Positions 39,751 to 63,586 are shown, counted from the stretch's first letter. The stretch: DNA of 64,000 nt from an uncultured Muribaculaceae bacterium (GCA_964408085.1 CAYOYB010000004.1:1057-65056); one strand, 5' to 3'. The notes: a model not told the origin generated them from the letters alone. Made by a program: numbers and translations.

Positions 39751-39836
39751 GCCAACCTGGCGGAATGGTAGACGCAGTGGACTCAAAATCCACCGATAGC
39801 AATATCATGAGGGTTCAAGTCCCTTGGTTGGTACCA
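39751..39836 (+). tRNA. tRNA-Leu (anticodon CAA), CCA encoded
   Basis: Acceptor stem GCCAACC/GGTTGGT (G1.U72). Anticodon loop CT-CAA-AA. Long variable arm (CCGATAGCAATATCATGAGG). T-arm GGTTCAAGTCC. 3' ACCA. Confidence 0.9.
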
Positions 39837-39912
39837 TTTAAAAATCTGTTCGAACTTTTTCGAACTTTAAATAGGAGACTTGTCAAAAGTCTTTTTTTAT
39901 GTTATTATGAAT
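39831..39912 (+). repeat. copy A of an approximately 80-bp imperfect direct repeat that begins inside the tRNA-Leu 3' end
   Basis: GTACCATTTAAAAATCTGTTCGAACTTTTTCGAACTTTAAATAGGAGACTTGTCAAAAGTCTTTTTTTATGTTATTATGAAT aligns base-for-base at most positions with 41221-41300. Confidence 0.8.
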
Positions 39913-39914
39913 GC

Positions 39915-40028
39915 AGCAAGAAATCTTGCATAAAATAAAAAAGGGAACATTCAGTTTTGCAATGTTGAATGTCTACCCAATTAGAATTGATTAGACACTT
40001 ATTCTAGCGAATGAGTGTCATTTTTTTA
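39915..40028 (+). ncRNA. putative small RNA 1 (candidate type I antitoxin)
   Basis: Promoter is TTGTCA (39880-39885), 17 nt, TATTAT (39903-39908). Three hairpins: GCAAG/CTTGC at 39916-39929, ACATTCA/TGAATGT at 39947-39972, and terminator GACACTTAT/ATGAGTGTC at 39994-40019 followed by T7. Its 3' end overlaps the stop codon of the convergent peptide gene. Confidence 0.55.
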
Positions 40029-40110
40029 TTGCTAACACCAAGAAGGTAGAGAGTAATAAAATGATAGCAATGAGCTTTAAAACCTTTACTATGAAAGTTT
40101 TAGTTTTCAT
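40018..40110 (-). CDS. 30-aa hydrophobic peptide (candidate type I toxin 1)
   Basis: Not in the ORF track because it is too short. GAGAGGAGG RBS, then ATG at 40110. Sequence MKTKTFIVKVLKLIAIILLLSTFLVLAIKK, with TGA at 40018-40020. Confidence 0.55.
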   Translation of the reverse strand: MKTKTFIVKVLKLIAIILLLSTFLVLAIKK

Positions 40111-40176
40111 CTTATCAAACCTCCTCTCTTTGAAAGATTAGAGGCAGACACTCAACAACTGATATTCCCTAAAATA

Positions 40177-40205
40177 ATTATACTATAAGTTAACTATGTG
40201 TACAA
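40177..40205 (-). promoter_or_regulatory. promoter of peptide gene 1
   Basis: On the - strand: TTGTAC, 17 nt, TATAAT. This gives a 5' UTR of about 60 nt in which CCTCT can pair with the AGAGG of the RBS. Confidence 0.55.
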
Positions 40206-40350
40206 GCGAACATAATAAATTCATGAAAATTTTTTTATGAATCTACTTATATTTTAATACTTGCGTCAAAATATATAGAGTTTAGAAATTTTGTCAAAAC
40301 AAAATTGTATGTTATAATACAATATATTTAAGAATTAATGGAGGTTTTAC

Positions 40351-41199
40351 ATGAATACAATTATTTTAAGTGACACTGCTATTCTAGGTTTAGATTATAA
40401 AAGCACAAAAGAAGGTATTTGTTATTTAAAATTATTACAAAGTAAAGGATATAAACTTGTTGTTTTATCTAATAGACCAGAATTATGTATGAGAAAAATT
40501 GGTGCTTTTATATCAAATAATAATGAAGTATCATATCGATATTTAGGTTCATGTGATATTAAAGGAAATGGTATTGATATAATTTTTCATGATGATAAAC
40601 AAATTATAGACGAAATTAATATAAAATATGACTACACTGTATTTGGAAATGGTATATGTATATTTAATAATCAAGATAAATTAATCTATCAAGGACAATT
40701 TGTAACTAGAGAAATATTAAATGAAATGGTTGAAACTTTTAGAAAAAATGGATATAGATCTTATGGTGAATTGCAAATACTTTCAAAAGATAATTATGGA
40801 GATAGATGCTTTTTAGGACGTGAAGATGTATATAAATTTTTTACACCAACAATAGGAACGACTGAAATAACAGATAATATTTATGGAATGCAATGTAGTG
40901 GTCGAAGTGAAACAGAAGACAACTATATTATAAAAGAAATAGAAAATGCAATTTCAAGTATAAAAGGATATATATTAAATGAGAAACCTTGTTTTTATCA
41001 AAAAGATATAAATAAATTAACAGCGCTTAATTATCTTGCAAATAGTTATGGCATAAATATTGATGAAGCCATTATTTTATTAAGTGAGATTACAGATGAT
41101 GTTATAAATTCCAAATATAAAGCTACTAATTTAATTAATGAAAATAACAATACCTTTAAATATGGATCTATAAATCATGTCCTAAAAAAAGTGATATAG
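40351..41199 (+). CDS. hypothetical protein (weak HAD/Cof-like flavour only)
   Basis: 282-aa ORF with a GGAGG RBS. No canonical DxD motif seen, so no function assigned. Confidence 0.5.
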   Translation: MNTIILSDTAILGLDYKSTKEGICYLKLLQSKGYKLVVLSNRPELCMRKIGAFISNNNEVSYRYLGSCDIKGNGIDIIFHDDKQIIDEINIKYDYTVFGNGICIFNNQDKLIYQGQFVTREILNEMVETFRKNGYRSYGELQILSKDNYGDRCFLGREDVYKFFTPTIGTTEITDNIYGMQCSGRSETEDNYIIKEIENAISSIKGYILNEKPCFYQKDINKLTALNYLANSYGINIDEAIILLSEITDDVINSKYKATNLINENNNTFKYGSINHVLKKVI

Positions 41200-41220
41200 T
41201 TTTAAATAACTATACCAATA

Positions 41221-41300
41221 GTACCATTAAGAAATCTGCTCGAGCTATTCGAGCTCTAAATAGAGAACTTGCAAAAAGTTCTTTTTTATGTTAATATGTA
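41221..41300 (+). repeat. copy B of the direct repeat (no tRNA in front of it)
   Basis: GTACCATTAAGAAATCTGCTCGAGCTATTCGAGCTCTAAATAGAGAACTTGCAAAAAGTTCTTTTTTATGTTAATATGTAT. It starts with the same GTACCATT that ends tRNA-Leu in copy A. Confidence 0.8.
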
Positions 41301-41303
41301 TAT

Positions 41304-41417
41304 AGATGGAGGCAACTCCATATAATAAAAAAGGAACATTCAATATGCCGATGTTGAGTGTTGCCATTTAAATGGTTACCACCTAAATCATTGGATGAGT
41401 TAGGTGGATTTCTTTTA
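41304..41417 (+). ncRNA. putative small RNA 2 (candidate type I antitoxin)
   Basis: Promoter is TTGCAA (41269-41274), 17 nt, TAATAT (41292-41297). Hairpins: ATGGAG/CTCCAT at 41306-41321, AACATTCAA/TTGAGTGTT at 41335-41362, and terminator CCACCTAA/TTAGGTGG at 41379-41407 followed by a T-rich run. Same layout as sRNA 1 with different stem sequences. Confidence 0.55.
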
Positions 41418-41498
41418 TATTAGAGTTATAAATAACAATAATAGTAAAAGGAAGATAATAATTACTAGAGCAAAGATTAAAAAATCTTTCTTGTTCAT
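41415..41498 (-). CDS. 27-aa hydrophobic peptide (candidate type I toxin 2)
   Basis: GGGGAGG RBS, then ATG at 41498. Sequence MNKKDFLIFALVIIIFLLLLLLFITLI, with TAA at 41415-41417. Convergent with sRNA 2. Confidence 0.55.
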   Translation of the reverse strand: MNKKDFLIFALVIIIFLLLLLLFITLI

Positions 41499-41560
41499 AT
41501 TATCGCCTCCCCTCAACACGAAGTTTGGCTCCACCCAACTTATTAAATGTTCCTAAAACA

Positions 41561-41589
41561 ATTATAGCAAACATTTGTTCTTAATACAA
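41561..41589 (-). promoter_or_regulatory. promoter of peptide gene 2
   Basis: On the - strand: TTGTAT, a 17-nt spacer ending in TGC, then TATAAT. Same geometry as the copy 1 promoter. Confidence 0.55.
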
Positions 41590-51795: not shown

Positions 51796-52818
51796 ATGAA
51801 AAAGAAAAAAATTATATCATCCATAATATTAGTAATTTTATTCTTAGGAATCATTTATAAACCTAGTATAATTAAGGCTGACTCTGGTTTTGACTCTAGT
51901 TGGGATAGTGGCTCATCAGGATGGAGTAGCTCATCAGATTGGGGGAGTTCTTCAGATTGGGGCAGCTCATCAAGTTGGAGTAGCAGTTCGCATAGTAGCA
52001 GTGGTAGCTATATCTACGGTGGATTTTATTTTGATGTCATCTCTATTACTACTGTTGTTATGTTAACATTTGTTGTATTTACTTTCTATCTAACTTTAGC
52101 AAAAATAGTAAGAAACGATATTATACCAAAAATAATTATTTTTACACCATATTTTACATTTGTTACTTACATATTTGGTTTTATTAATCTTATTGCAGCA
52201 ATAATTACATTAAAGATACTTCTAAATAAAAATAAACAAAATAATAATTCCAACCAATCATCTAATTTACCAAACAAGTTATCTATAGAAGAAATTAACA
52301 AATATCTACCAAATTTCAATGTTGAAGAATTTAATACTACTGTCTTTAAAATATATAAAGATATTCAAGAAGCTTGGATGAATTTTGATTTAGAGACAAT
52401 CAGAAATTTAGTTAGTGATGAAATTTATAATATGTATTCAATGCAACTTAGTACTTTACAAGTTAAAGGTCAAAAAAATATGATGGAAAATATTAAATAT
52501 ATTGATAATTATATCTCTAATATTTCAATAGATAACAATATTACGACGATTCAAACTGTTTTAAAAGTAACTTGTAATGATTACGTTATTGATAATGATA
52601 ATAAAGTAGTAAGAGGTAATAAATATCGAACACTAACCTATACATATGTATTAACATTTACAAAATATACAGAGCCTAAAAATATTACTAATTGTCCAAA
52701 CTGTGGAGCAGAAATTAGTATTAATTCTAATGGTAAATGTAAATACTGTAATGCTACTATCATAAACGAAGAAGAAAAATGGATTATGACTAAAAAACAG
52801 ATGTTAGTTCAAAAATAA
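51796..52818 (+). CDS. Tim44-like domain membrane protein with Ser/Trp-rich repeat and C-terminal zinc ribbon (paralog 1)
   Basis: Signal/TM, then SGFDSSWDSGSSGWSSSSDWGSSSDWGSSSSWSSSS, then TM helices. The Tim44-like region is FKIYKDIQEAWMNFDLETIRNLVSDEIY.... Ends with CPNCGA...CKYCNA. Confidence 0.6.
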   Translation: MKKKKIISSIILVILFLGIIYKPSIIKADSGFDSSWDSGSSGWSSSSDWGSSSDWGSSSSWSSSSHSSSGSYIYGGFYFDVISITTVVMLTFVVFTFYLTLAKIVRNDIIPKIIIFTPYFTFVTYIFGFINLIAAIITLKILLNKNKQNNNSNQSSNLPNKLSIEEINKYLPNFNVEEFNTTVFKIYKDIQEAWMNFDLETIRNLVSDEIYNMYSMQLSTLQVKGQKNMMENIKYIDNYISNISIDNNITTIQTVLKVTCNDYVIDNDNKVVRGNKYRTLTYTYVLTFTKYTEPKNITNCPNCGAEISINSNGKCKYCNATIINEEEKWIMTKKQMLVQK

Positions 52819-57142: not shown

Positions 57143-58006
57143 ATGAAGAAAAAAGTGTTAACAATTTTAATGCTAGTTATTTTATTTTTGGGAATCATTT
57201 ATAAACCAATTATTATTAAGGCTGATTCAGGATTTGATTCTAGTTATGATAGTGGTAGTTCATCAAGTAGTTCATCAGACTGGAGTTCATCAGATTGGAA
57301 TTCATATGGTGTTTCTCATCAAAATTCCCCGTATAATACTATATCTGTGATTATAATTGCCTCTTTAATTGCAATAGTATATATAATAGCATTTAGAAGA
57401 GTAATAAAAACAATTAAAGAAACAATTAATGAACAGATAGAGGCAAGTTATCTACTAAAATTAACTACTGAAGAGATTCAAACTAAACTACCTAATTTAA
57501 ATATAGAAGAATTTAATAAAATTGTATTTAATAATTACAAAGAGATTCAAATAGCTTGGATGAATTTTGATTTAGATACAATTAAAAATCTAGTAAGTGA
57601 CGAAATATACAATATGTATTCAATGCAGTTAGACACATTAAAAGTTAAAGGTCAAAAAAATATGATGGAAAATATTAATTATGTAGATAACTATATATGT
57701 AATATAACAATAGAAAATGATATAACAACTATTAGTACAATTCTATCTGTCACTTGTTATGATTATATTGTTGATAATAATAACAAAGTTATTAGAGGAA
57801 GCAAAAATAAAGAATTATATTATACATATAGATTAACATTCACTAAAAATAGTATTGATAAAAATATAGATAATTGTCCTAATTGTGGCGCCAAAATTAA
57901 TTCTAAGAAAGATACAAAATGTCATTATTGTGGTGCAACTATAGTTAATAACAATTCAGAATGGATTATGACGAAGAAAGAAATGTTAGGACAACAAACA
58001 AAATAA
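57143..58006 (+). CDS. Tim44-like domain membrane protein with Ser-rich repeat and zinc ribbon (paralog 4)
   Basis: N-terminus LVILFLGIIYKPIIIKADSGFDSSYDSGSS is almost identical to paralog 1. C-terminal domain and CPNCGA...CHYCGA are highly similar to 51796-52818. Confidence 0.6.
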   Translation: MKKKVLTILMLVILFLGIIYKPIIIKADSGFDSSYDSGSSSSSSSDWSSSDWNSYGVSHQNSPYNTISVIIIASLIAIVYIIAFRRVIKTIKETINEQIEASYLLKLTTEEIQTKLPNLNIEEFNKIVFNNYKEIQIAWMNFDLDTIKNLVSDEIYNMYSMQLDTLKVKGQKNMMENINYVDNYICNITIENDITTISTILSVTCYDYIVDNNNKVIRGSKNKELYYTYRLTFTKNSIDKNIDNCPNCGAKINSKKDTKCHYCGATIVNNNSEWIMTKKEMLGQQTK

Positions 58007-59787: not shown

Positions 59788-61248
59788 TTACCTCTTTTCA
59801 ATTTCACTAATCATCATGTTTCTTGTCATTGCTGGATTAGCTTGACCTTTTGTCTTTTTCATAACTTGACCTACTAAAAAGTCCACAATATTAGTTCTTC
59901 CTTGTTTATAAGTAACAATAGCGTCTGGTTGTTCATCAAGTACTTCAGTAACAATTTTTAAAATTTCATCTTCGCCACCAATTTGTTTAATACCTAAATC
60001 TTCTACAATAGCGCTAGGATCTTTTTTGTCTTCTAAAGATTTATAAAAAACTTCTTTACTTTGTTTTGAAGAAATCTTACCATCTTCTATCATTTTAATT
60101 AAATCTACTAACATTTGAGGAGTAAAGAATAAATCCTTTATTTCCATTTCATTTTTATTTAAGTAACCCAAAATAATACTAGTAACCCAGTTAGAAGCTG
60201 ACTTAGGATTAGCTCCTAATTTAATGGCTTCTTCATAATAATCAGCGACATCTTTTTCTTTAACAATTATTGTGGCGTCATAATTAGAAATACCATATTC
60301 ATTAATATATTTTTCTTTTCTCTCTGGTGCAAGTTCTGGTATAGATGCTTTTATACTTTCTAACCATTCTTGCGACAACTTAAATTTTGGTAAATTTGGT
60401 TCAATAAAATATTTATAGTCAATGGCATCTACTTTACTTCGCATATAAATAGTTGTACCTGACTCTTCATCCCAACGTCTTGTTTGTTGTTCCATTTTAT
60501 CATATTCGCCAGATTCTTTAAGTTCAATTTGTCTTTCAATTTCATAATTAATCGCATCTCTAACGCCACCAAAAGAATTGACATTTTTGATTTCAACTTT
60601 AGTTCCCCAATTTTCTTCTTTGGTTTCATCTAAGTTTTCATCCATAATAGATACATTGACGTCACATCTAATTTGTCCTTTTTTACTATCTGCTTCACTA
60701 ATACCTGCATATTGATAAATAGACCTCATTGTCTCTAAAAAAGAAACTGCTTCTTTAGCTGAATGAAAATCTGGATAAGTAACTAACTCTAAAAGTGGTA
60801 CACCTGCTCTATTATAGTCAATAGTTGAAACAGTTGCATAATGGTCAGTACTTGCAGCATCTTCCTCTAAGTGAATATTATTAATACGAACTGTTTTTAA
60901 TTCATCATCACATTCATAAGTTAAACTACCATATATACCAACTGGAGCTGGTTTTGTTTCTTGTGTAATTTGAAAGCCCTTTGGTAAGTCAGGATAATAA
61001 TAATTTTTTCTTTCAAAATAAATATATTCAGGTTGCTTACAATTTAAAATAATACTAGCCATTAAAGCTTTTTTTATTGCTTCTTTATTTACAACTGGTA
61101 AAGTACCTGGGAAGGCCATATCAACAGGACGAATATTGCTATTAGGTATATCACTATAAGAGTTGGCAGCACCAGAGAAAACTTTTGTCTTAGTTTCACT
61201 AATTTCACAGTGCATTTCTAAACCAATTAGAACTTTATAACCATTCAT
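59788..61248 (-). CDS. gatB: Asp/Glu-tRNA amidotransferase subunit B
   Basis: 486 aa. VLIGLEMHCEI start, DYNRAGVPLLE, and a C-terminal YqeY-like tail. Confidence 0.95.
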   Translation of the reverse strand: MNGYKVLIGLEMHCEISETKTKVFSGAANSYSDIPNSNIRPVDMAFPGTLPVVNKEAIKKALMASIILNCKQPEYIYFERKNYYYPDLPKGFQITQETKPAPVGIYGSLTYECDDELKTVRINNIHLEEDAASTDHYATVSTIDYNRAGVPLLELVTYPDFHSAKEAVSFLETMRSIYQYAGISEADSKKGQIRCDVNVSIMDENLDETKEENWGTKVEIKNVNSFGGVRDAINYEIERQIELKESGEYDKMEQQTRRWDEESGTTIYMRSKVDAIDYKYFIEPNLPKFKLSQEWLESIKASIPELAPERKEKYINEYGISNYDATIIVKEKDVADYYEEAIKLGANPKSASNWVTSIILGYLNKNEMEIKDLFFTPQMLVDLIKMIEDGKISSKQSKEVFYKSLEDKKDPSAIVEDLGIKQIGGEDEILKIVTEVLDEQPDAIVTYKQGRTNIVDFLVGQVMKKTKGQANPAMTRNMMISEIEKR

Positions 61249-62705
61249 TATTCTACCTCCTTAGCAATTTGATTTTTGTAATCCATTGAACTTTCTAAAG
61301 CATACGCAATATTTAATACATTAGCATCATCATAACAGTTTCCAGTTATATTAACACCAACTGGCAAATTATTAACAAAACCATTTGGAATTGTAATAGA
61401 TGGAAAACCACCAAAATTTCCAATTTGTAAATGTTCTTCTAAAATTTGAGTACTTGCATCTAAAATATCTAAAGAACCATCTAAGTGTTTAGCAGGACCA
61501 CTTCCAACTGGTAAAATAACAGCGTCATATTTTTCATAAAGTTTTTTCCACTCATCAACCAATAATCTTCTAACTCTTTGAGCATTAAAGAAATAACGAT
61601 TTTTATTTTGTGCTTGTAATACATAAGAGCCAATTACAAATCTTCTTTTAATAAGTGGTGAGAAACCTTCAGTACGATAATTTTTCATCATCTCAATATA
61701 ATTTTTACCTTCACCACGTGGACCAAAAATAATACCTGTTAAATTTGACATATTACTTGTTGCCTCAGCACATGATATAACAACATAAACACTTGCTACA
61801 GCATTAAGCAATTTTTTATCAATAGAAACTTCTTCAATTTCCATACCTAATTCACGACATTTATCAAGTGTTTTCTTAAAATTTTCTAAATGACTTTTCA
61901 ATTCATCACTAGCATTAGGATAATTTTCGATATCACAAATTTCTTTAACATAACATAATTTTTTACCTTTAACATCACCATTTAAAGAATCAGCCAAATG
62001 AATATCACTAGAGTCCCAACTAGTCATATCATTTTTGTCAATTCCTTTCATATTGTCAGCAACAATAGCGGCATCTAAAACACATCTAGATAAAACACCA
62101 CAGTGATCTAAACTACTAGCAAAAGGAAACAAACCATATCGTGAAATCATTCCATAAGTAGGTTTATAACCAACAATTCCACAATATGCTGCTGGCTTTC
62201 TTATCGAGTCTCCTGTATCACTACCAGTAGCATATGGGTACACCCCAGCTGCTACTGCACAAGCACTACCTGCAGAAGAACCAGCACACATTCTTGTTTT
62301 ATCCCATGGATTTCTAACCATTCCTGTATGACCAGTTGTACCTGTTCCACCCATACCAAATTCATCTAAAACTGTTTTATTAACAGCTACTGCTCCAGAA
62401 TGCTCCAAATTTTTAATAGCGGTTGCTGTAAAAAAAGGAACATAATCTTTTAAAGTATTTGATGAACCAGTACTTAAAATACCTTTAGTACTATAATTAT
62501 CTTTAATACCATAAGGAATACCTGATAATAAATTATCTGTAACATTACTACCCTTAGCGTCATCTAAAATTGTAACAAACGCATTATACTTATCCTGAAT
62601 TTCATGAGATTTTTTTAAAGATTCCCTAACTAATTCATCACTAGTAACAACACCATTTTTTAAATCCTCATGTAGTTCTTTAATTGTTTTTTCCATATAA
62701 CTCAT
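61248..62705 (-). CDS. gatA: Asp/Glu-tRNA amidotransferase subunit A
   Basis: 485 aa. Amidase signature: GGTGTTG..., CAGSSAGSACAVAAG, GSDTGDSIRKPAAYCG. Confidence 0.95.
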   Translation of the reverse strand: MSYMEKTIKELHEDLKNGVVTSDELVRESLKKSHEIQDKYNAFVTILDDAKGSNVTDNLLSGIPYGIKDNYSTKGILSTGSSNTLKDYVPFFTATAIKNLEHSGAVAVNKTVLDEFGMGGTGTTGHTGMVRNPWDKTRMCAGSSAGSACAVAAGVYPYATGSDTGDSIRKPAAYCGIVGYKPTYGMISRYGLFPFASSLDHCGVLSRCVLDAAIVADNMKGIDKNDMTSWDSSDIHLADSLNGDVKGKKLCYVKEICDIENYPNASDELKSHLENFKKTLDKCRELGMEIEEVSIDKKLLNAVASVYVVISCAEATSNMSNLTGIIFGPRGEGKNYIEMMKNYRTEGFSPLIKRRFVIGSYVLQAQNKNRYFFNAQRVRRLLVDEWKKLYEKYDAVILPVGSGPAKHLDGSLDILDASTQILEEHLQIGNFGGFPSITIPNGFVNNLPVGVNITGNCYDDANVLNIAYALESSMDYKNQIAKEVE

Positions 62706-62706
62706 A

Positions 62707-63006
62707 CTATTCCACCACCTTTGGCACTTCTACTTCACGGTCATTATAGACATCACAGTTTTGAAGTAATTCATCAATTGGTGTTGATTCCTCAACTTCA
62801 TCTTCTCTTAACTCAAATGAAAAATTATCTAAACACCAAGACATTGGCTCAACATCTTCAATATTTGGTACTTTAGTAATAATATCAATATCAATATCGA
62901 TTACTCCAAATTCATCTAATATCATCTTATTTTCTTCTTTTGTTAGATCGATTAATAACTTATCAGCTAAATCATCAACAATCTCACTCGTAAATTTATT
63001 CTCCAT
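62707..63006 (-). CDS. gatC: Asp/Glu-tRNA amidotransferase subunit C
   Basis: Start moved to MENKFTSE (AGGAGG RBS). Small acidic protein immediately upstream of gatA. Confidence 0.8.
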   Translation of the reverse strand: MENKFTSEIVDDLADKLLIDLTKEENKMILDEFGVIDIDIDIITKVPNIEDVEPMSWCLDNFSFELREDEVEESTPIDELLQNCDVYNDREVEVPKVVE

Positions 63007-63025
63007 GATAATCCTCCTTTTATAT

Positions 63026-63055
63026 AAAAAATTCCTGAACGACAAAATTCAGAAA
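63026..63055 (-). terminator. weak AU-rich hairpin + U6 between the tRNA-Asn array and gatC
   Basis: On the - strand, UUUCUGAA-UUUUGUCG-UUCAGGAA (8 bp including one G.U) is followed by UUUUUU. There is no room for a promoter before the gatC RBS. Confidence 0.45.
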
Positions 63056-63070
63056 TTTTATTAACAAATA

Positions 63071-63146
63071 TGGCGCCTGATGTAGGACTCGGACCTACGA
63101 CCTACCGGTTAACAGCCGGGTGCTCTACCAACTGAGCTAATCAGGC
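63071..63146 (-). tRNA. tRNA-Asn (anticodon GTT), copy 3 in transcription order
   Basis: Reverse complement is GCCTGATTAGCTCAGTTGGTAGAGCACCCGGCTGTTAACCGGTAGGTCGTAGGTCCGAGTCCTACATCAGGCGCCA. Cloverleaf with CT-GTT-AA anticodon loop; CCA encoded. Confidence 0.92.
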
Positions 63147-63152
63147 AATAAG

Positions 63153-63228
63153 TGGCGCTCAATGTAGGACTCGGACCTACGACCTGCCGGTTAACAGCCG
63201 GATGCTCTACCAACTGAGCTAATTGAGC
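63153..63228 (-). tRNA. tRNA-Asn (anticodon GTT), variant copy
   Basis: Same length and anticodon. Acceptor stem is GCTCAAT/ATTGAGC instead of GCCTGAT/ATCAGGC (compensated changes), with further changes around the anticodon stem and variable region (CATCCGG...CCGGCAG vs CACCCGG...CCGGTAG). Confidence 0.92.
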
Positions 63229-63233
63229 AGATA

Positions 63234-63309
63234 TGGCGCCTGATGTAGGACTCGGACCTACGACCTACCGGTTAACAGCCGGGTGCTCTACCAACTGAGC
63301 TAATCAGGC
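63234..63309 (-). tRNA. tRNA-Asn (anticodon GTT), copy 1 in transcription order
   Basis: Identical in sequence to 63071-63146. Confidence 0.92.
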
Positions 63310-63317
63310 AAATAACT

Positions 63318-63586
63318 AAAAAAACAGCTATTTCATCCACTTAAGGACGAATAACTGTGTATCCGCGGTACCACCCTTATTATTATATATCACTATATAA
63401 TCACTCATTGTTCTTCTGAACTTGCAATGGTAACGGATCACAGTCCGACTTATTCTACTTTCAAGAGATTTCGATAAGTAACTCCGTGGTGTTATTCATA
63501 TTAGCCACAATGTTAGTTCTCACCATTCTAACTCTCTTTAAATAGAAACTAATATTACTTCTCCACTTCACAGTTTTAAAATAACT
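63318..63586 (-). promoter_or_regulatory. T-box riboswitch leader, specifier candidate AAC (Asn)
   Basis: On the - strand: T-box AAGGGTGGTACCGCG (63364-63378) and F-box CCGTTA (63431-63436). Stem I spans 63480-63575, with K-turn-like GUGAA/GGA, specifier loop AGAAGUA // GAAU-AAC-A, AG bulge AGAGA, and distal loop AAUGGUGAGAA closed by GUUAG/CUAAC. The terminator is a stem of about 14 bp followed by U7 (63318-63358). Confidence 0.85.

Follow-up and report, generated by a model that had tools for sequence, protein, structure and literature searches.

Paired small-RNA and hydrophobic-peptide modules in gut bacterial genomes, a probable new family of type I toxin–antitoxin-like cassettes

Introduction

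The type I class of toxin–antitoxin (TA) systems is recognised by a small hydrophobic, membrane-type peptide, whose open reading frame (ORF) has its own ribosome-binding site, and by a cis-encoded antisense RNA that has its own promoter and is complementary to the peptide messenger RNA (mRNA). Both traits, the second at the sequence level, are found in two modules on a 64,000-nucleotide (nt) stretch of DNA assigned to an uncultured Muribaculaceae bacterium (GCA_964408085.1, CAYOYB010000004.1:1057-65056; G+C content 26.9%), which at its full length is referred to here as the window. Closest to these modules in layout is the TxpA/RatA pair of the Bacillus subtilis skin element, with the related pairs BsrG/SR4, BsrE/SR5, and YonT/SR6; the TxpA toxin has 59 amino acids (aa). 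The txpA and RatA transcripts overlap by ~120 nt at their 3' ends, the SL3 and RatA-terminator loops lying opposite the loops of the txpA terminator and SL6, and decay of txpA needs both RatA and RNase III (PMC3531473). This layout fits the general Gram-positive arrangement (PMC8594479). In the Fst/RNA II system (the par locus of pAD1) a local stem hides the Shine-Dalgarno sequence and the extreme 5' end of the mRNA is held in a helix (PMC7472228), and in hok (by tac/fbi) and in Helicobacter pylori AapA1 a long-distance 5'-3' pairing closes the full-length mRNA, with the Shine-Dalgarno sequence sequestered (PMC9841398).

Each of the two modules is interpreted here, with a probability of roughly 70%, as a chromosomal type I TA-like cassette belonging to a previously undescribed family. 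An earlier sequence-only reading of the window had proposed two paralogous type I TA-like loci, and this proposal now finds computational support in the discreteness of the cassette, its structured RNA, its coding ORF, the arrays and decay of its copies, and its orientation. If it is correct, the modules would amount to a type I TA family that is widespread across a large uncultured group of gut and rumen Bacilli, with an unusual mix of the Gram-positive 3'-overlapping antisense layout and a 5'-3' lock in the style of hok and AapA1. Aiming the antisense RNA at the 3' partner of this lock, so that the antitoxin would mimic the 5' end of the mRNA, is a testable design.

Two homologous modules and their relatives

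Modules 1 (positions 39880-40205) and 2 (41269-41589) are homologous and alignable from end to end with a mean column identity of 77%, their bodies being 56-67% identical. Relatives were sought with a seed pattern derived from hairpin 2 of the predicted small RNA, the block most conserved between the two window copies, which gave at least 120 matches in metagenome contigs and, slightly refined, at least 120 among GTDB species representatives; these counts, taken from the matches listed for a pattern seeded on hairpin 2, are minima, and the listed carriers probably cover only part of the phylogenetic range. Once chance matches had been dropped there remained 184 modules, 174 of them unique and full-length, and a profile search over the retrieved loci returned 241 hits, among them 29 diverged modules without the seed pattern. 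The modules form a family of more than 240 members, present in gut and rumen metagenomes and metagenome-assembled genomes (MAGs). A covariance model built on 150 relatives (R1) recognises exactly two copies in the window (scores in Table 1), the remaining matches being their reverse strands (31.8 and 20.4 bits) followed by a background of at most 15.9 bits; the building of such a model had been suggested earlier as a check.

Nearly all genome matches belong to MAGs of gut origin (rabbit, ruminant, and human), some titled as uncultured Bacilli, Tenericutes, or Erysipelotrichaceae and others bearing names like 'Coprobacillus sp. CAG:605' or 'Clostridium sp. CAG:433'. Some carrier MAGs (L135, L147, L169, L182, L195, L198) are titled 'uncultured Muribaculaceae', a name belonging to the Bacteroidota, and have modules and flanks resembling those of AT-rich Bacilli MAGs; their titles probably reflect mislabelling or a binning artefact and not a true occurrence outside Bacilli.

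When whole modules are aligned, conservation spans ~335 base pairs (bp) from the -35 box of the small-RNA promoter to the -35 box of the mRNA promoter. Because it ends at both of these boxes, and the flanks are unrelated, the module is a discrete cassette. All four promoters proposed in the sequence-only reading are present where it had placed them, as read from the sequence, and both convergent promoters appear to be of sigma-A type. The small-RNA promoter follows the consensus TTGnnn-17-TATnAT; of 131 modules, 101 have the 17-nt spacer and 83 the extended TG. That of module 2, under the threshold of the promoter scanner, can nevertheless be aligned with that of the family. In the mRNA promoter, TATAAT is perfect in 63 of the 131, and a conserved GGAAC 5' end begins 6-7 nt downstream of it.

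Comparison with family libraries left these loci unassigned. Rfam, applied to the whole window at gathering thresholds, reported tRNAs and one T-box only, and within the module region it returned no family besides tRNA at E-values up to 10, the best other candidate, rli32, reaching 21.6 bits where the threshold is 100. A known riboswitch or leader, which had been named as a competing explanation for the hairpins, was accordingly not matched in Rfam by either module. A scan of viral contigs with the seed pattern gave 0 matches and a BLAST search against plasmids and phages gave none, so that there is no sign of carriage by mobile elements. Gene callers and RNA and protein family libraries are currently blank at module loci, and R1 can be used to annotate them.

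The peptide gene

The minus strand of both window modules has GGAGG 7-9 nt upstream of a start codon, and the stop codon of each ORF touches the T-run of the small-RNA terminator, so that the tiny ORFs of 30 and 27 aa with a strong ribosome-binding site and a stop at the terminator, described earlier, are confirmed. The family comprises 104 distinct peptide sequences of 27-33 aa, with a mean grand average of hydropathy (GRAVY) of 1.78, in two main subfamilies: A, to which module 1 belongs (30-33 aa, of the form MKKRnFvIKVLRYIsIILLLLIIMIIVIKK), and B, to which module 2 belongs (27 aa, of the form MNKKDFLIfsLvIIIFLLLfLLFIvLI); smaller subfamilies C and D are also present. By strict criteria the ORF is intact in 140 of 174 modules. 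Its ratio of non-synonymous to synonymous polymorphism (pN/pS) is 0.46 in subfamily A and 0.27 in subfamily B, compared with 0.54-2.4 in shifted frames, and the second codon position is the least variable. Judged by these signatures, the ORF is coding and under purifying selection. The peptides had no significant match in Pfam, NCBIfam, or PHROGs, and an exact look-up of seven of them (the two in the window and five common variants) in a collection of 15 billion proteins found none.

In some 10-14% of copies the start codon has been lost (ATG to ATA or ACA) or the ORF is frameshifted or truncated. Decayed members were noted at L160:6292-6376 (minus strand) and in L143, L228, L094, L133, and L153; in one of them a module without promoter and hairpin 1 is joined to a tRNA-Leu trailer, and the others have a putative toxin ORF with an ATA or ACA start codon or a truncation, next to an intact small-RNA part.

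The small RNA

The plus strand of each module is predicted to yield the three-hairpin RNA of about 110 nt that the sequence-only reading had described, and both RNAs fold better than their shuffles (z values in Table 1). Across 150 sequences, 95.1% of the cells in the helices of hairpins 2 and 3 are paired; shuffled sequences reach 87.5%, and slid controls 26-42%. Hairpin 3, the terminator, shows double (compensatory) changes at 10 of its 12 pairs; covariation was analysed with RNAalifold as well. Hairpin 2 is fixed by the seed, and its invariance among seeded modules is therefore uninformative, but in the diverged modules found without the seed it covaries, ACATTCA:TGAATGT being replaced by TACTTAA:TTGAGTA and the clamp GGG:CCC by GAGG:CCTC. 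Folding each sequence separately recovers hairpin 1 in 177 of 180 modules, in 85 sequence versions and with its stem swapped among CAAG/CTTG, GAAG/CTTC, GAGA/TCTC, and CAGA/TCTG. Within the helices, 383 cells are G·U and 16 are A·C when read on the plus strand, and since a G·U pair corresponds to A·C on the opposite strand, this excess indicates that the fold is selected in the plus-strand transcript. The stem covariation seen earlier between the two window copies, and taken as a sign of functional RNA, is in this way extended to compensatory changes and a strand-specific G·U bias across the family.

The mRNA 3' end and its pairing with the 5' end

Hairpin 3 is followed by a T-run on the plus strand only, and the minus-strand T-run comes instead after hairpin 2, as the complement of a nearly invariant AAAATAAAAAAG lying beside this hairpin on the plus strand. 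Because no minus-strand T-run follows hairpin 3, the small-RNA terminator is not bidirectional, and the mRNA should therefore read on to hairpin 2, where it most likely terminates at the U-tract. With this end, the small RNA would be antisense to the entire ~90-nt 3' untranslated region (UTR). The terminator on which the two transcripts had been described as converging thus holds good for the small RNA, but the two RNAs do not have it in common; they are predicted to overlap over two hairpins, a layout of the TxpA/RatA and not of the Fst type.

The imperfect inverted repeat reported around each peptide gene is found again (39943-39978 with 40143-40169 in module 1; 41332-41365 with 41527-41553 in module 2). 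The mRNA 5' UTR and the small RNA do have a hairpin-forming sequence in common, as had been claimed, and its role is best refined from a hairpin to a long-distance pairing between the two ends of the mRNA. In the minimum free energy (MFE) structure of the module 1 mRNA, 29 of the first 30 nt are paired with the last 50 nt, and that of module 2 has 26 long-distance pairs; at least 15 such 5'-3' pairs occur in the MFE structures of 141 of 170 family mRNAs, and the Shine-Dalgarno sequence is fully paired in 83 of the 141 mRNAs in which one is recognisable. Complementarity between the UTR, which lies outside the search seed, and the 3' end amounts to 87.5% paired cells in helix I and 77% in helix II, compared with 30-55% in slid controls, and one 5'-3' pair divides the family into 84 GC and 73 AU.

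A second segment of the UTR tracks the 3' arm of hairpin 3, the two reading GGTGG/GGTGG in ~21 modules, GGTGA/GGTGA in ~28, and GGATGT/AGATGTC in four; in module 2 itself, GGUGG of the UTR tracks GGUGG of hairpin 3. Subfamily C follows suit: in three modules the UTR and hairpin 3 both read GTGCT and hairpin 2 has kept GTACT, and in two the UTR reads GTACT, as hairpin 3 does. As read from these variants, the 5' UTR consists of two copied arms, the 5' arm of hairpin 2 and after it the 3' arm of hairpin 3, and is thereby a partial mimic of the small RNA. In one concerted change hairpin 3 goes from AAGTGTC to AGATGTC and the UTR from GAGTGTC to GGATGTC, the 5' arm in the small RNA remaining GACATTTAA. 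Since this change is compensatory only for pairing inside the mRNA, it points to a cis interaction; cis and trans partners are not separable with certainty, and this single event favours cis. Pairing in trans at the translation start is not claimed here, the RNAduplex energies being barely better than those of shuffles.

Genomic setting

Two to four modules occur together at 26 loci, mostly spaced by 330-445 nt or ~1.4 kb, and neighbouring modules have the same orientation in 31 of 32 pairs. Moreover, 37 of the 184 modules begin at most 46 nt past the 3' end of a tRNA gene, covering nine amino-acid specificities, and in all 37 the tRNA lies on the small-RNA side and is co-oriented with the small RNA. 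With 94 tRNAs in 1.29 Mb of loci, less than one tRNA-adjacent case would be expected by chance. Flanking ORFs are also preferentially co-oriented with the small RNA (95:51 and 90:46). As judged from gene orientation, outside transcription thus tends to enter the module in the antitoxin sense and not in the peptide sense, as expected if the peptide is harmful, and the unvarying orientation of the modules that follow tRNA genes suggests that transcriptional context is under selection.

At these 37 loci (L132, L137, L143, L202, and L216 among them) the module stands right behind the last tRNA of an operon, and the junction consists of a conserved trailer CCA-GATTGATAGnAAA, a hairpin, and a terminator with the -35 box of the small-RNA promoter in its loop. 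Read-through from the tRNA operon, as this arrangement allows, may possibly contribute to small-RNA levels. The trailer (xATTGATAG plus hairpin) was considered as a part of the module and rejected, as it also trails tRNAs that have no module.

Within the window, the left flank of module 2 (41220-41298) repeats the junction of tRNA-Leu(CAA) and module 1 (39830-39909) with 81% identity, including GTACCA, the last six bases of the tRNA, two trailer hairpins, and the promoter. The stems of the trailer hairpins are compensated between the copies (GTTCGAAC vs GCTCGAGC; AGACTT vs GAACTT). This repeat flanks a 1.39-kb segment made up of module 1 and a HAD-hydrolase gene (40351-41199), and could be the footprint of a duplication or recombination, or an att-like repeat. 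The HAD gene is otherwise recorded only on two Logan contigs from different SRA runs, L001 (1463 bp) and L002 (1444 bp), which are 100% identical to the window, add no variation, and both end inside modules; paired modules apparently break short-read assemblies.

Table 1. Positions of the features assigned to modules 1 and 2, counted from the first base of the window
Feature	Position	Strand	Remarks
Module 1 tRNA-trailing hairpin AGACTT/AAGTCT plus T6	39876-39898	+	Terminator-like for the upstream tRNA-Leu; small-RNA -35 box in loop; same layout after many relatives' tRNAs
Module 1 small-RNA promoter	39880-39908	+	TTGTCA-17-(TG)T-TATTAT, TG extended -10; promoter scan
Module 1 predicted small RNA, ~113 nt	39914-40027	+	Fold z -4.9; R1 101.4 bits; covariation; ends predicted
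Module 1 small-RNA hairpins	hairpin 1 39916-39929; hairpin 2 39943-39978; hairpin 3 (terminator) 39994-40019 plus T7	+	
Module 1 predicted peptide mRNA, ~235 nt	39932-40170	-	Fold z -7.5; ends at hairpin 2 reverse complement and U-tract (predicted)
Module 1 peptide ORF	40018-40110	-	MKTKTFIVKVLKLIAIILLLSTFLVLAIKK, 30 aa, subfamily A; Shine-Dalgarno GGAGG 40124-40120
Module 1 mRNA 5' end	40143-40169	-	GGGAAUAUCAGUUGUUGAGUGUCUGCC, loop-less copy of small-RNA hairpin arms; predicted to pair with mRNA 3' end
Module 1 peptide-mRNA promoter	40205-40177	-	TTGTAC-17-TATAAT; conserved in the family
Module 2 left flank	41221-41287	+	Copy of tRNA-Leu 3' end, GTACCA 41221-41226; hairpins 41238-41254 and 41265-41281 plus T-run
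Module 2 small-RNA promoter	41269-41297	+	TTGCAA-17-(TG)T-TAATAT; sequence reading, alignment to family promoter
Module 2 predicted small RNA, ~113 nt	41303-41416	+	Fold z -6.2; R1 96.1 bits
Module 2 small-RNA hairpins	hairpin 1 41306-41321; hairpin 2 41332-41365; hairpin 3 (terminator) 41379-41407 plus T-run	+	
Module 2 predicted peptide mRNA, ~230 nt	41322-41555	-	Fold z -6.9; ends predicted
Module 2 peptide ORF	41415-41498	-	MNKKDFLIFALVIIIFLLLLLLFITLI, 27 aa from ATG, subfamily B; Shine-Dalgarno GGGGAGG 41513-41507
Module 2 mRNA 5' end	41527-41553	-	GGAACAUUUAAUAAGUUGGGUGGAGCC; predicted to pair with mRNA 3' end
Module 2 peptide-mRNA promoter	41589-41561	-	TTGTAT-17-TATAAT; sequence reading, family conservation

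Comparison with described systems

The modules share with TxpA/RatA the convergent promoters and an antisense RNA on the 3' side that overlaps the mRNA 3' end by ~90-120 nt, the overlap in the modules being predicted at ~90 nt over hairpins 2 and 3 from an inferred mRNA 3' end. With these predicted ends, each terminator hairpin would face an internal hairpin of the other RNA, offering possible loop-loop starts, and an extended duplex cut by RNase III would be expected by analogy. The two systems have no sequence relation, as no match to a RatA or SR family of Rfam or to a toxin family of Pfam or NCBIfam was found, and they differ in several further respects. The module peptide, at 27-33 aa, is half the size of TxpA; the overlap halts at the stop codon and does not enter the ORF; the mRNA 5' end is predicted to pair with the same 3' UTR that the antisense RNA targets; and the modules are chromosomal and tRNA-linked, not prophage-borne.

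Convergent promoters, a hydrophobic peptide of ~30 aa, a stem around the Shine-Dalgarno sequence, and sequestration of the 5' end also recall Fst/RNA II. However, the PXXXG motif of the Fst toxin occurs in 0 of the 104 module peptides, there is no single shared bidirectional terminator, as the T-run of hairpin 3 is confined to the plus strand, and in place of the DRa/DRb direct repeats, by which the 5' end of the Fst antitoxin becomes complementary to the translation start of its toxin, the modules have an inverted repeat, with the UTR in the small-RNA sense; an RNAduplex search revealed no specific duplex of the small RNA with the Shine-Dalgarno/start region. The 5'-3' fold-back predicted in 141 of 170 module mRNAs resembles hok/Sok and AapA1/IsoA1 in mechanism only. 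These are Gram-negative families with peptides unrelated to those of the modules (HokA, the best Hok-family match, reached 12.4 bits, with a cut-off of 89, at E = 0.12), and their antisense RNA binds the 5' region, and only once 3' trimming has opened the mRNA, whereas the module small RNA covers the 3' partner of the lock, overlapping the 3' UTR and, in contrast to Sok, having no complementarity to the 5' leader. The modules are therefore placed as a new type I family with a variant regulatory design, outside any named family.

Proposed mechanism and alternative explanations

For a type I TA cassette of this kind the following course of events is envisaged. A sigma-A-type promoter on the minus strand would drive an mRNA of ~235 nt whose product, a hydrophobic single-pass peptide of 27-30 aa, is presumed to be a membrane toxin, and a convergent plus-strand promoter, usually with an extended -10, would drive the ~113-nt three-hairpin RNA, the presumed antitoxin. 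The mRNA would pass its stop codon, continue across hairpins 3 and 2 in reverse complement, and end at the U-tract, leaving the small RNA perfectly complementary to the whole ~90-nt 3' UTR and to almost nothing else. Its first ~27 nt would pair with the extreme 3' end and with the arm just past the stop codon, forming a clamp that hides both mRNA ends, with the Shine-Dalgarno sequence mostly paired as well, and the mRNA thus locked would be stable and poorly translated. An abundant small RNA would invade the 3' UTR from loop-loop contacts at hairpins 2 and 3, displacing the 5' end that mimics it, and the resulting long duplex would be cut by RNase III (as in the action of RatA on txpA) and the mRNA degraded; a shortfall of small RNA would allow the peptide to be made and the membrane to be damaged. 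More tentatively, and as a proposal with clearly less than even odds, the antitoxin and the mRNA 5' end could be mimics competing for the same 3'-UTR sites, such that the small RNA prises the clamp open to 5'/3' exonucleases and RNase III, and read-through from strong promoters of the tRNA genes so often found upstream could feed the antitoxin, coupling toxin silencing to the growth-rate-linked transcription of tRNA.

Several points weigh against this interpretation. Toxicity of the peptide, a role for RNase III, and, by analogy, the direction of regulation are inferred, and the peptide is without similarity to any known toxin family in Pfam or NCBIfam. In principle, displacement of the 5' end could activate translation instead of preventing it. 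All transcript ends on both strands are predicted, the 3' end of the mRNA being placed solely by the conserved U-tract, and a terminator scan did not flag hairpin 2 on the minus strand, where the loop is ~10 nt and the stem bulged. Hairpin 2 and the positions of its partner are mostly fixed by the search pattern, which weakens the covariation of helix I. As the hairpins are near-palindromic and alike, several pairings fit, the UTR with hairpin 2 or with hairpin 3, in cis or in trans. Finally, RNAduplex gave -32 kcal/mol for the small RNA with the mRNA 5' region compared with -26 kcal/mol for shuffles, a marginal difference, and long spurious helices dominated the output.

Purifying selection on the peptide, together with its lack of similarity to known toxins, would also suit a harmless small membrane protein, for instance a modulator of a transporter or sensor, that is tuned by a cis-antisense RNA and has no part in a TA system. 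This explanation appears unlikely in view of where and how the modules occur: at unrelated intergenic sites with no conserved partner gene, in tandem arrays of diverged copies, with start-codon losses and frameshifts, and with the peptide gene kept antisense to outside transcription and locked behind heavy RNA structure. All of these traits are what type I toxins usually show, and they are uncommon among accessory membrane subunits.

Somewhat harder still to credit is the idea that the plus-strand RNA is the main product, a tRNA-linked regulator with targets in trans, and that the opposite ORF and its mRNA are secondary, serving as decoy or sponge. The small-RNA part and its promoter are indeed the best-conserved portion of the module, 20% of modules lie directly behind a co-oriented tRNA, and the G·U bias favours the plus-strand fold; yet the ORF, its Shine-Dalgarno sequence, and its promoter are kept in nearly all modules with a coding signature, the mRNA 5' UTR co-evolves with the small-RNA hairpins in a manner that ties the two genes together, and no further match to the small-RNA model was found within the 64-kb window. 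It is very improbable, lastly, that the modules are non-autonomous mobile or repeat elements, akin to miniature inverted-repeat transposable elements (MITEs), that target tRNA 3' flanks and carry the ORF and 'promoters' incidentally. Such elements could account for the inverted repeat around the ORF, for the multiple copies in varied contexts with frequent tRNA adjacency, and for the copied tRNA 3' end in the left flank of module 2. They would not account for the frame, Shine-Dalgarno sequence, and both promoters retained in highly diverged copies, nor for a conserved unit that stops at the promoters and not at the inverted repeat. Neither target-site duplications nor near-identical copies were seen; the motif of the tRNA trailer is present behind tRNAs without a module as well, and the inverted repeat varies in step with the internal hairpin 3, which fits RNA pairing and not binding by a transposase. 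A type I TA-like cassette thus remains the preferred interpretation of each module.

Other features of the window

Elsewhere in the window, on the minus strand at 61248-63580, three tandem tRNA-Asn(GTT) genes (63071-63309) come after a T-box leader (63340-63580, 127 bits) and are themselves followed by ORFs of 112 and 485 aa, sizes that would suit GatC and GatA. The locus resembles an operon under T-box control that serves tRNA-dependent asparagine formation, GatC and GatA being candidates by size alone. Two pairs of direct repeats, 52276-52575 with 57458-57757 (300 nt) and 51802-51911 with 57146-57255 (110 nt), are 78-80% identical and lie ~5.2-5.3 kb apart; they probably represent paralogous genes.

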